From NCBI GenBank assembly GCA_030700025.1, contig JAUYKI010000017.1:2748-66747 (forward strand): DNA of 64,000 nt, in the 5' to 3' direction. Made by a program: the position numbers and the translations under genes. Each line of letters begins with the position of its first letter. Within the stretch, counting starts at the first letter, position 1. A model generated the notes under the pieces. It did no database searches and had not been told where the DNA came from. It worked only from the letters and a program-made list of their open reading frames with translations. This document shows positions 6,094 to 7,722 of this stretch, piece by piece. Origin of the DNA: a bacterium (GTDB lineage Bacteria > Patescibacteriota > Minisyncoccia > UBA6257 > 02-FULL-45-10c).

Positions 6094-7722
6094 ATGTCTA
6101 AGTTCTATATCACTACCTCTATTGCTTATGTTAATGCCGCCCCGCATATTGGTTTTGCGCTGGAAGCGGTTCAGGCGGACGTAGTTGCCCGCTGGCATAA
6201 GCAGGAGGAAGTCTTCTTTTTAACCGGCACAGACGAGCACGGAGCGAAAATTGCCAGGGCCGCGGCCGCCTCGCGCGGCGAGGCGCCGCCGAAAGCGAGC
6301 CTCGCCACTGGCGGGAGCCTCGCCCCAAAGGGGCGGGAAGCCGACAATAAGTTAATAAAAGAATTTGTTGATCAGCAAGCAGAAAAGTTTAAAGCGTTAA
6401 AAAGCGCGCTTAATTTATCCTGGGACAACTTCATCCGGACTTCCGACCAAAAAGTTCATTGGCCGGTGGCGCAAGAAGTCTGGAAGCGGATTGCGGAGGC
6501 GGGCGATTTATATAAAAAAACTTATCAGGGGCTTTATTGCGTCGGCCACGAAGCGTTTGTTACCCAGAAAGACTTAGTGGCGGAAACCCCGACGCTAGAG
6601 GGTCGGGGCTCCGACCGAAGCGCCGGAGATGCCTTAGTATGTAAAGATCATAAAAAAGCCCCGGAGCTTATAGAAGAAGAAAACTGGTTTTTTAAATTAT
6701 CAAAATATACGAAAGATATTGAATTGCGAATAAAGAATGATGAATTACGGATTATTCCGGAAGGCCGGAAAAATGAGGTTTTGGGCTTGCTTAAGGACGA
6801 TCCGGAAGATGGTTCGGCAAGCTCACCACAAGACGTGAGTTTCTCCCGGCCGAGCAAAGACTTAACCTGGGGCGTTCCGGTGCCGGGCGATGATTCGCAA
6901 ACCATGTATGTCTGGGCAGATGCCCTCACGAACTATATTAGCGGTTATGGCGGAGTTAAAAACTGGGAAAAGCATCCGGCGGATATCCATTTTATCGGTA
7001 AAGATATTTTACGTTTTCACGCGATCATTTGGCCGGCGATGCTTTTATCGGCAAAATTGCCCTTGCCGAAAACTATTTTTGTGCACGGCCATATTTTGTC
7101 TGACGGGCAGAAGATGTCTAAATCCTTAGGCAATGTGGTGGATCCGTTTGAATTAGTAAAAAAGTATGGTTCGGCAAGCTCATCACAAGCTGGCACAGAT
7201 GCAGTTCGGTATTTTCTTTTGCGGGAAATTCCGTCGGCGGAAGACGGCGATTTTAGCTATGAAAAATTTACCCAGCGGTATAACGCGGATTTGGCAAACG
7301 GATTAGGTAATTTTGCGGCCCGGGTTTTAACCCTTGCGAGTAATTACAGCGAATATTTTACAATTCACGCTAACCCCCAGAACGTTCACGAGGTGGTTAA
7401 TGACAAAATTAAGGAAACCCAATTATTAGCTAATAAGAAAATCACGGATTTTAAACTTAACGAAGCACTAGAAATAATTTGGAGCTTAATCCATTTTGGG
7501 GATCAGTATATAAATGAAAAAAAACCATGGGAGCGAAAGGATGAAAAAATAATAGAGGCAAATGGCGTAGCGATTCACAGTTCGGTAGCAATTTTAAATA
7601 ACGTGGCGATTTTACTCCAACCATTTTTGCCGGACACCGCGGATAAAATTACCAAGAGCATCGTTTGGGAAGAAGGTAGGCTGGAAATCCAAAAGACCGA
7701 AAATTTATTTCCGAGATTGTAA
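6094..7722 (+). CDS. metG: Methionyl-tRNA synthetase.
   Basis: The class I N-terminal region through AAPHIGFA, the KMSKS motif and the anticodon-binding domain are seen. The zinc-knuckle region is degenerate, with one Cys only. Several low-complexity in-frame inserts are present. Confidence 0.9.
   Translation: MSKFYITTSIAYVNAAPHIGFALEAVQADVVARWHKQEEVFFLTGTDEHGAKIARAAAASRGEAPPKASLATGGSLAPKGREADNKLIKEFVDQQAEKFKALKSALNLSWDNFIRTSDQKVHWPVAQEVWKRIAEAGDLYKKTYQGLYCVGHEAFVTQKDLVAETPTLEGRGSDRSAGDALVCKDHKKAPELIEEENWFFKLSKYTKDIELRIKNDELRIIPEGRKNEVLGLLKDDPEDGSASSPQDVSFSRPSKDLTWGVPVPGDDSQTMYVWADALTNYISGYGGVKNWEKHPADIHFIGKDILRFHAIIWPAMLLSAKLPLPKTIFVHGHILSDGQKMSKSLGNVVDPFELVKKYGSASSSQAGTDAVRYFLLREIPSAEDGDFSYEKFTQRYNADLANGLGNFAARVLTLASNYSEYFTIHANPQNVHEVVNDKIKETQLLANKKITDFKLNEALEIIWSLIHFGDQYINEKKPWERKDEKIIEANGVAIHSSVAILNNVAILLQPFLPDTADKITKSIVWEEGRLEIQKTENLFPRL
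6270..6345 (+). repeat. GC-rich palindromic in-frame insertion inside metG. It is related to the insert in gatC.
   Basis: The segment gcgaggcgccgccgaaagcgagcctcgccactggcgggagcctcgccccaaaggggcgggaagcc encodes SRGEAPPKASLATGGSLAPKGREA. It shares aaag(g)gcgagcctcgcc...ctggcg...gggcgggaa with 60541-60600. GC content is far above the local average. Confidence 0.6.

Follow-up and report, generated by a model that had tools for sequence, protein, structure and literature searches.

Why does one short sequence recur both in frame within essential aminoacyl-tRNA synthetase genes and in the noncoding DNA of the same CPR genome? We addressed this in the window, the 64-kb stretch of DNA that was analysed here as a whole. 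A first-pass annotation had described the repeat as a recurring 20-mer. The recurrence stands, but the unit common to the copies is a core of 13 nt, TTCGRCAAGCTCA, which is found exactly five times against 0.0036 expected (P(≥5) = 5e-15), far above chance. When up to two mismatches are allowed there are 10 matches compared with 2.9 ± 1.9 in shuffled sequences, a number reached in 0 of 100 shuffles. The window holds seven to eight copies in total (Table 1), or about one per 9 kb, and three of them lie in frame within the MetRS (metG) and LeuS genes. The longest identity between copies is restricted to the metG pair, which shares 24 nt (ATGGTTCGGCAAGCTCAYCACAAG) with one difference. The peptides previously read from the coding copies, GSASSPQ (6811-6831), GSASSSQAG (7168-7194) and PSASSGQAS (14700-14726), are encoded as described, and the one-mismatch core bears out the variant reported in leuS. 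The three noncoding copies of that annotation are likewise present, a few bases away from where it had placed them. Two tRNA-Ala trailer copies, at 27198-27217 and 27264-27277, come in addition to those it listed. A one-mismatch match at 274-286 on the minus strand was set aside as probably due to chance, encoding TVSLPDG in a beta-rich protein between non-complementary flanks.

Table 1 Motif copies in the 64-kb window and the genes that carry or adjoin them.
Feature	Position	Strand	Description
metG (MetRS, 542 aa)	6094..7722	+	most orthologues 470-517 aa
metG site 1 insert	6808..6831	+	24 nt in-frame, GAT GGT TCG GCA AGC TCA CCA CAA = DGSASSPQ, residues 239-246
metG site 1 core loop	6813-6825	+	exact TTCGRCAAGCTCA; closed by TGG/CCA
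metG site 2 insert	7168..7191	+	24 nt in-frame, GGT TCG GCA AGC TCA TCA CAA GCT = GSASSSQA, residues 359-366
metG site 2 core loop	7170-7182	+	exact TTCGRCAAGCTCA; flanks TGG/TCA
Noncoding copy, 5' leader of gene starting 9552, downstream of tatD	9493..9530	+	core 9505-9517 exact; flanks GGG/CC(G)C
leuS (LeuRS, 841 aa)	12441..14966	+	host gene
leuS in-frame copy	14700..14726	+	CCT TCG GCA AGT TCA GGA CAA GCA AGC = PSASSGQAS
leuS core	14702-14714	+	one mismatch (C to T); flanks CC/GG; net gain 6 residues
Noncoding copy, 15 nt upstream of ATG at 17530 (minus-strand gene)	17541..17561	-	core 17545-17557 exact; flanks GCGC/GCAC
Variant-loop copy cccTTCGATACGACTCAggg, tRNA-Ala trailer	27198..27217	-	14-nt loop, 3 Watson-Crick flank pairs, then tail CAGGC
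Noncoding copy, tRNA-Ala(GGC) trailer	27226..27249	-	core 27231-27243 exact; stem GGCAG/CTGCC
Degenerate copy TTCGACCTTGCTCA	27264..27277	-	begins 2 nt past tRNA-Ala 3' end; flanks non-complementary; membership uncertain; read from sequence
tRNA-Ala(GGC)	27280..27351	-	3' trailer holds three-copy cluster

The repeat is non-random, and its stem covaries. The unit forms a hairpin whose 13-nt loop, the core itself, is invariant and whose stem of 3-5 bp varies between copies yet remains complementary. Complementary flanks are present in the window copies with the exception of the degenerate one, and the minimum-free-energy fold of the copy at 27226..27249 pairs exactly the bases of its two flanks. 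A longer unit of 38 nt, 79% complementary, is common to the copy at 9493..9530 (where the identity of tatD is taken from the syntenic locus L005) and that at 27218-27255. The six clear window copies carry six different stems, which makes them unlike a recent burst from one master copy. In a set of 163 unique copies drawn from 120 genomes, the second and third flank pairs are Watson-Crick in 88%, compared with 42% and 34% for shuffled partners; CG, GC, TA and AT pairs all occur, pairing is at background from the fifth pair outwards, and 65 copies on viral contigs follow the same pattern.

Relative to their orthologues, the metG and leuS copies are insertions. The first-pass annotation had proposed, as a check, that orthologues should lack the peptides, and comparison agrees: the site 1 insert is missing from all 119 other MetRS proteins, being unique among the 120 compared, and the site 2 insert is missing in 110 of the 120, including the closest (P0002, 72%), in whose DNA (L003) the empty site reads AAA TAC directly followed by GGC ACA. 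The ten orthologues in which site 2 is filled belong to at least eight separate clades, each with insert-free sisters. For LeuS, ELW and WP are separated by 13 aa in 73 of 91 orthologues and by 19 aa in the protein encoded here; the two nearest orthologues (81% and 78%) lack the insert, and the E. coli LeuS alignment has a 6-residue gap at this point. The same LeuS loop is occupied in four further orthologues (P0241, P0244, P0289 and P0267). That identical codon positions are filled in scattered lineages suggests site-preferring gain, precise loss, or both.

The coding copies are in-frame inserts of 18-24 nt that add Ser/Ala/Gly/Gln loops, all read in one frame (S-A-S-S), and for MetRS they are predicted to lie in flexible loops. 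In the MetRS model both inserts are placed in low-confidence coil, site 1 with pLDDT below 50 and site 2 between the helices at 351-358 and 368-378. The earlier proposal that the repeat is tolerated as a Ser/Ala-rich peptide when it falls in frame is supported by both its frequency and the orthologues. The metG inserts are surrounded by direct repeats (TGG...TGG, GATG...GACG) that are too short for interpretation.

A composition of this kind is shared by many disordered linkers, and the multi-unit expansions seen at some insert sites (L002, L200, L201 and P0289) would suggest slippage. The inserts could then be ordinary lineage-specific linkers of low complexity, produced by slippage or local duplication, with codon usage accounting for the similarity in DNA, or else assembly artefacts; in either case no element would be involved. 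This explanation is hardly credible, being already contradicted by several observations. The exact 13-mer also recurs in noncoding DNA, at the probability given above, and it is found across phyla with covarying flanks. Its three Ser codons are invariably TCG, AGC and TCA across five diverged lineages, and the 542-aa MetRS is recovered unchanged from an independent Logan assembly (L005).

The silent sites of the metG cassette are unusually conserved, through constraint or recency: where the amino acid is the same, codons are identical at 48 of 58 cassette positions (83%) compared with 253 of 460 in the flanks (55%; Fisher p = 3e-5). Such conservation is also what would be expected if the repeat were a functional RNA hairpin, a binding or processing signal in transcripts maintained by RNA-level selection, with the nuclease association described below being incidental. 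All seven window copies read in the sense direction of the local transcript, a bias that a single-stranded DNA (ssDNA) model does not require. Two copies separate a promoter-like region from a start codon, three come after the 3' end of a tRNA, and a copy in Staskawiczbacteria (L101) follows a tRNA immediately on the same strand. The R position (A or G) could, in addition, pair with U11 either way. We nevertheless regard an RNA signal as unlikely. The stem is only about 3 bp, the folds are no more stable than those of shuffled sequence (z from -0.9 to +1.1), and Rfam models recover only tRNAs in the window at gathering thresholds and no family at E ≤ 10 in 27100-27300 and 9440-9580. In other genomes the motif is found in either orientation, forming inverted doublets and also both inverted ends of a gene cassette, and one copy (L200) is antisense to its two neighbouring genes. 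Stem mismatches on the sense strand are A-C in 19 cases and G-T in 5 (p = 0.007), which gives an indirect hint in favour of pairing on the opposite strand, and the characterised relatives act on ssDNA, not RNA (PMC11893778). A count of orientation and frame based on crude long-ORF calls was discarded because of spurious high-GC ORFs and an antisense stop codon confound.

The family extends far beyond this genome. The motif is found in Bacteroidota, Chloroflexota, Cyanobacteria, four proteobacterial classes, Actinobacteria, Acidobacteria, Nitrospirota, Planctomycetes, NC10 and four CPR groups, and the sequence that follows the hairpin differs by lineage, being CAAGC here, CGAACGG in Proteobacteria and TGACA in low-GC Bacteroidota-like genomes. 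Literature searches with the peptide strings and the 13-mer returned only primer coincidences. CPR bacteria depend on DNA uptake, and the motif resembles the uptake sequences DUS and USS in being short and in lying both between genes and, in a preferred frame, within them, as the three coding copies do. It might accordingly be a sequence favoured by uptake or recombination, whose in-gene copies are limited to a harmless frame; in Neisseria, the hairpin repeats called NTS and their Ssn nucleases modulate natural transformation (PMC11893778). This seems very unlikely to us, however, given that the motif is sparser (seven to eight copies in 64 kb, not about one per kb) and that genes gain it by insertions of 18-24 nt instead of substitutions. 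The 13-mer is identical in phyla unable to share an uptake specificity, and uptake sequences do not have a covarying stem.

In other taxa, the motif family is linked to a gene for a GIY-YIG nuclease. Inverted copies lie on both sides of such a gene on a Sphingomonas plasmid, and locus L197 shows this arrangement. Among 80 metagenome loci, a sense copy is located within 200 nt downstream of the GIY-YIG gene in 51 and an antisense copy within 250 nt upstream in 47, and motif density near the gene reaches 3.8 per kb, against 0.12 per kb elsewhere. The hairpin-gene-hairpin unit measures about 400 bp, encodes a single-domain nuclease of about 95 aa, and occurs on alphaproteobacterial-type metagenome contigs. 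Its ends form matching terminal inverted repeats, with similarity ceasing past GAACGG, and no target-site duplication is evident around the units. The nuclease belongs to Pfam PF01541, has the UPF0213 proteins 1ZG2 and 1YWL as its best PDB matches and gives no NCBIfam match; its clade may be either cd10448 (Ssn) or the adjacent family UPF0213. Literature searches on COG2827, UPF0213 and YhbQ gave nothing relevant. GIY-YIG genes in other taxa are also flanked by 14-nt loops of the form TTCG-N6-CTCA. About 45 of 120 GIY-YIG homologues possess read-through tails in which the motif is translated, for example as PSTSSGRTE and VRPEPVEG. The peptides LRQAQ.., PSTSSG.., FDKLRA.. and LSLSKG are seen in these tails and in long ORFs around motif copies; the element would explain them as spurious ORF peptides encoded by the hairpin.

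Both ends of a given unit carry the same stem triplet, and the triplet differs between units, which indicates that the stem is part of the element. A fold-back synthesis, in which the stem would be made from the target at insertion, was rejected on this observation. The nuclease link was seen only on alphaproteobacterial-type contigs with the CGAACGG tail and not with the CAAGC tail of CPR. No GIY-YIG gene was detected in the 64-kb window by tblastn and regular-expression searches, nor within about 4 kb of some 195 other motif loci, apart from a truncated gene at one end of the CPR contig L201. This gene, the only one seen in CPR, has another repeat word, CCCGTTAGA, in front of it instead of the motif. 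The viral contigs yielded neither relatives of this fragment nor a complete hairpin-gene-hairpin unit.

The closest characterised counterparts are the Ssn nucleases, whose binding and cleavage of hairpin repeats is limited to ssDNA and which are found in an NTS-ssnA-NTS layout (Chenal et al., Nat Commun 2025, PMC11893778). As in that system, the gene for a single-domain GIY-YIG protein (about 94-95 aa) lies between inverted short hairpin repeats, the repeat is also scattered over genomes as solitary copies, doublets and clusters, and a conserved, non-palindromic tag on one of its sides makes it directional. In the unit nucleases, Tyr6, Tyr16 and Glu63 align, allowing for a shift of one residue, with the catalytic residues that were mutated in SsnA (Y6, Y17 and E64). 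The recognition logic is reversed, however: NTS has an essential sequence-specific stem of 6-8 bp and a small, dispensable loop (PMC11893778), whereas our motif has an invariant loop and a free 3-bp stem. The published consensus of the wider repeat family, SRM, is HGTCWYN(0-2)YYVSBRHN(0-5)WNVSBRGN(0-2)RNCYNB (PMC11893778). It overlaps none of 174 motif copies at the 80 GIY-YIG loci and has no match in the window, while a control NTS was matched. NTS are seldom in genes (2%; PMC11893778), in contrast to the three of seven to eight window copies that lie in frame inside essential genes. Rickettsia is among the genera rich in SRM, and CPR are unmentioned (PMC11893778). Even NTS are not known to have a mechanism of insertion.

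Other repeat families share part of this picture. Like REPs and REPINs, the motif consists of short hairpins occurring as singletons, inverted doublets and clusters; as with REPs and RAYT, a single-copy nuclease gene has inverted flanking copies and most copies are far from it. RAYT, however, is an HUH/Y1 transposase and not a GIY-YIG nuclease, and literature searches gave no link between REP/RAYT and GIY-YIG. Within one genome REP stems are conserved, and between species they differ, whereas the present motif keeps its loop across phyla and varies in its stem; REPs are extragenic, unlike the three intragenic copies, and their GTAG or CGTC tag is absent from the motif. Rickettsia palindromic elements (RPE), reportedly described by Ogata et al. 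in 2000, are said to occur in frame in conserved protein genes and in noncoding DNA. They are 100-150 bp long and restricted to Rickettsia, and their inserts are tolerated as extra surface peptides. The motif resembles RPE as a palindromic repeat that is tolerated in frame in conserved genes and is also present in noncoding DNA, but its unit is only 18-24 nt and it is distributed across bacterial phyla.

Taken together, we judge it somewhat probable that the repeat is a miniature hairpin element, a nuclease-less member in this CPR genome of a hairpin and GIY-YIG system. Because the family elsewhere brackets small GIY-YIG nuclease genes, the window copies are most likely mobile-element debris tolerated by essential proteins. 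They would probably be solitary members without a nuclease, standing as REPs do relative to RAYT transposases, and a nuclease encoded elsewhere in the genome, now or formerly, would recognise them as ssDNA hairpins. With no nuclease gene in the window, mobilisation here is an inference, as are the action of a nuclease in trans in this genome, the DNA strand that is recognised and the chemistry of insertion.

These results add a second motif class to the hairpin and GIY-YIG systems reported in 2025, one that has the opposite recognition logic, with a conserved loop and a freely varying stem, and that spans a very broad range of taxa, and they offer a testable origin for short in-frame insertions in essential CPR proteins. 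The repeated occupancy of identical codon positions in two aminoacyl-tRNA synthetases provides a natural setting in which the site preference and precise loss of a miniature element can be studied. More tentatively, and with more doubt than conviction, a distinct Ssn-like clade of GIY-YIG enzymes may read the invariant 13-nt loop instead of a stem and form, across bacterial phyla, a mobile pair with the hairpin, whose solitary CPR copies would home to, and could leave precisely, codon positions of essential genes such as MetRS site 2 and the C-terminal loop of LeuS. Since Ssn enzymes are under development as ssDNA tools, a loop-reading clade would add new specificities. If this were true, the hairpins would be a recurrent writer of surface loops of 6-8 residues, and a source of the numerous small protein indels in reduced CPR genomes.

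The source of the window is a CPR MAG, a Harrisonbacteria-like member of the Parcubacteria; the closest named relatives of its methionyl-tRNA synthetase (MetRS) are Harrisonbacteria and Parcubacteria. A 13-nt sequence, TTCGRCAAGCTCA, recurs in it on both strands, where calculation predicts 0.0036 exact matches (P = 5e-15). When up to two mismatches were allowed, 10 matches were obtained, compared with 2.9 ± 1.9 in shuffles. The first-pass annotation had described a 20-mer recurring in metG, leuS and noncoding DNA. The recurrence is confirmed, and the translations of the coding copies agree with the peptides given there, but the conserved core is 13 nt, and 24 nt (with one difference) are common to the two metG copies only. 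One single-mismatch match, at 274-286, was rejected as a family member and is attributed to chance, because its flanks are not complementary and it encodes TVSLPDG within a beta-rich protein.

Copies of the motif and of other short repeats
Feature	Position	Strand	Detection or remark
Exact TTCGRCAAGCTCA	6813, 7170, 9505	+	sequence scan of window
Exact TTCGRCAAGCTCA	17545-17557, 27231-27243	-	sequence scan of window
One-mismatch TTCGRCAAGCTCA	14702 (leuS)		sequence scan
One-mismatch TTCGRCAAGCTCA	274-286		sequence scan; treated as chance
Variant-loop copy	27198-27217		generalised scan, TTCG-N5-6-YTCA with complementary flanks
Degenerate copy	starts 2 bases past tRNA-Ala		
Second repeat family ATCCCGTTAGAAG	60-71; 1851-1863/1949-1960; 40399-40409/40508-40519; 62364-62376/62474-62485; 27135-27147		
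ATCCCGTTAGAAG, other contigs	L002 5174/5245; L201 819/933 and 9490		
AT-rich repeats, 7-nt period	3358-3404, 8537-8580, 34588-34649, 37155-37188, 37548-37587, 37683-37759, 58092-58135; 13772-13804; 2961-3004, 14048-14081, 15584-15617		

The motif is the loop of a miniature hairpin. Every window copy has complementary flanks (TGG/CCA, TGG/TCA, GGG/CC(G)C, CC/GG, GCGC/GCAC, GGCAG/CTGCC, CCC/GGG), and six copies have six different stems. We scanned 185,579 species genomes (at least 120 matches) and viral contigs (71 stretches). Across 163 unique copies among the genome matches listed, flank pairs 2 and 3 are Watson-Crick in 88%, against 42% and 34% with shuffled partners, with CG, GC, TA and AT pairs all represented; pair 4 is weakly enriched (45% vs 32%) and the outer pairs are at background. 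About 80% of the genome-scan matches are therefore true elements rather than random 15-mers. The tail 3′ of the stem varies by lineage (CGAACGG, TGACA, or CAAGC/CAGGC), and copies occur as singletons, inverted doublets 25-70 nt apart or tandem arrays. Thermodynamically these hairpins are weak; folded as RNA, the seven window copies did not outperform shuffles, and an Rfam search returned no family matching the motif. Sub-units of the element are also expanded in tandem at several compared loci (L100 5142-5419, L076, L046, L037 and L082), examples being GACAAGCTCAGGAC, present three times at a Dehalococcoidia locus, and the 22-24-nt arrays of viral contigs; these expansions suggest slippage between internal direct repeats (GAC...GAC, CAAGC...CAAGC) with a period of about 11 nt.

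All three coding copies share one reading frame, TCG GCA AGY TCA. The window MetRS is 542 aa long, most relatives measuring 470-517 aa. When 22 orthologues were aligned and 120 were counted, the peptide DGSASSPQ (site 1, 6808-6831) was found in the window MetRS alone. GSASSSQA (site 2, 7168-7191), located between the conserved KKY and G-DAVRY, is missing from 110 of the 120, including the closest orthologue, whose DNA joins AAA TAC directly to GGC ACA where the window has a 24-nt cassette. In the AlphaFold model (mean pLDDT 72.9), site 1 is predicted as coil (pLDDT below 50) and site 2 as coil between helices 351-358 and 368-378. Since an independent assembly encodes an identical MetRS, the metG inserts are no assembly artefacts. 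In leucyl-tRNA synthetase (LeuS), the ELW-to-WP spacing is 13 residues in 73/91 orthologues and 19 in the window; at the insert position the closest two orthologues (81% and 78%) have QKLGNENLLDNEK and SQLGNETLLDNEE, and alignment to E. coli LeuS leaves a six-residue gap there. The above-chance count and the orthologue check both support the first-pass reading of a small repeat tolerated in frame as a peptide.

An insert at exactly site 2 is present in 10/120 MetRS, mostly as GSASSPQ(A/V) and in three cases as longer multi-unit versions. In a neighbour-joining tree built with the insert columns left out, these ten occupy at least eight separate positions, each time with sisters lacking the insert. 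Across five lineages the cassette is nearly the same in DNA (GGT TCG GCR AGC TCA CCA CAA GYT), its three serines being invariably TCG, AGC and TCA. Where the amino acid is the same, codons are identical at 48/58 cassette positions vs 253/460 in 60 flanking codons (Fisher p = 3e-5), and third positions are identical in 82% vs 52%, which implies that the cassettes arose recently and independently or that constraint acts on the DNA itself. In loci L200 and L201 the loop of the first unit encloses a second, and L002 has a 96-nt array at this same site 2. Whether through repeated gain or repeated precise loss, site 2 is dynamic. The LeuS loop is occupied elsewhere too, by PSTGSGQV in orthologue P0244, by an array of 30 residues in P0289 and by an insert of 14 residues in P0267/L204.

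The window also holds other repeats. Window metG carries two further inserts of other types, SRGEAPPKASLATGGSLAPKGRE and ETPTLEGRGSDRSAGDAL (6271-6339 and 6583-6636), GC-rich with small internal hairpins and modelled as coil with pLDDT below 50; their sites are also filled in scattered MetRS orthologues (6/120 and 18/120; example peptides are SLAPxGREA and NHSDRSVGVTL), and the LeuS of L001 has a similar EAPTPAEGEVGGPTVKRV insert. Intergenic copies of ATCCCGTTAGAAG are arranged as convergent pairs with 70-120 nt between the members. The distal member, on the plus strand, is always TCTAACGGGATG, and the downstream gene starts at its ATG (ORFs at 69, 40517 and 62483; at 1958 an in-frame ATG). 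At 62371-62373 the upstream gene takes its TAG stop from the proximal member. The family looks like a MITE-like intergenic cassette running from stop to start. CPR contig L201 has a ATCCCGTTAGAAG copy 8 nt 5′ of a small GIY-YIG gene. The AT-rich repeats (TTAGAAA/TTAGTAA and GAAAAGTTAAAAGT types) are intergenic in both orientations, some lying in frame within genes, as in leuS KFQTPNSK (13772-13804) and EKLKVKSDK (14048-14081). An element of about 270-290 nt with terminal inverted repeats AGAACCTATCCCAATAATAAT also looks like a MITE; its two copies (5802-6092, directly upstream of metG, and 44559-44831) share 144 nt at 76% identity, and its short ends recur at 20038-20062 and 57122-57146. At 11741-11896, about 156 nt are enclosed by a 26-nt terminal inverted repeat (96%), and at 36706-36799 its inner parts (11757-11826) are found again in inverted orientation (94-97%). 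The metG-tatD gap (7723-8603, about 880 nt) has no plus-strand ORF of at least 90 aa, and the syntenic locus L003 has a comparable gap (5172-6364). At 52600-54400 a long coding region consists of ~144-nt repeats (48 aa, with the motifs NDVWSS..DG..W and KMWILGG) and resembles a repeat protein of the beta-propeller type.

Among the matches listed, the motif occurs in Bacteroidota, Chloroflexota, Cyanobacteria, Alpha-, Beta-, Gamma- and Deltaproteobacteria, Actinobacteria (six copies at one Microbacterium locus), Acidobacteria, Nitrospirota, Planctomycetes, NC10, Zixibacteria and four CPR groups, with G+C from 31% to 75%. As in the window, the element at a Staskawiczbacteria locus begins directly 3′ of a tRNA and shares its strand.

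A BLAST search of plasmids with a proteobacterial-type copy matched the 3′ end of a Sphingomonas GIY-YIG nuclease gene, which terminates in cccTTCGACTTCGCTCAgggcgaacg and is preceded by an antisense copy. About 45/120 GIY-YIG homologues have read-through tails that are motif translations (PSTSSGRTE, ALRLRSGRT, GLRQAQPER), followed by the antisense-copy peptides VRPEPVEG and PFALSLSK. Among 80 metagenome loci retrieved with an alignment of these homologues, a sense copy lies 3′ of the gene in 51 (mostly 6-50 nt after) and an antisense copy 5′ in 47 (mostly 22-40 nt before), and motif density is 3.8 per kb near the gene vs 0.12 per kb in the rest. The unit ends are matching terminal inverted repeats, stem triplet included, and similarity stops right after GAACGG; triplets differ between units, and no target duplication is evident around them. 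The associated proteins resemble the UPF0213 structures 1ZG2 and 1YWL. No GIY-YIG gene was found in the 64-kb window, and the one encountered in CPR (L201) adjoins a repeat other than TTCGRCAAGCTCA.

Ssn proteins belong to the GIY-YIG type and are about 94 aa long; they bind hairpin repeats (NTS; broader class SRM) as single-stranded DNA only and cut a few bases upstream of them; their genes are flanked by repeats (NTS-ssnA-NTS), and in Neisseria they restrain natural transformation (Chenal et al. 2025, PMC11893778). The metagenome and plasmid units have this same architecture, with the nuclease gene between repeats. However, the published SRM consensus fits 0/174 motif copies and nothing in the window; NTS require the stem sequence and not the loop (PMC11893778), the reverse of the TTCGRCAAGCTCA motif; and NTS are rarely intragenic (PMC11893778), unlike the three coding copies in the window. 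CPR are absent from that paper's account. Canonical NTS-like repeats fitting the consensus, such as CGTCATTCCCGCGAACGCGGGAATCCCG, share contigs with GIY-YIG units that have the TTCGACAAGCTCA hairpin on either side (L208 4069-4149, L276 976-1003, L233 329-356), and both classes therefore coexist in some genomes. Stem mismatches are A-C in 19 cases vs G-T in 5, and the low-GC tail in reverse complement, TGTCAT, resembles the NTS tag CGTCAT, which faintly hints that pairing may occur on the strand complementary to the written one. An RNA-level role stays the main rival, because all seven window copies are in sense orientation to transcription. The window copies are probably solitary members of an Ssn-type hairpin-nuclease system, tolerated where they encode harmless loops. 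The element is a variation on this recently described hairpin-nuclease kind, and it is unusual for its invariant loop and free stem, its cross-phylum reach and its recurrent in-frame occupancy of CPR essential genes.
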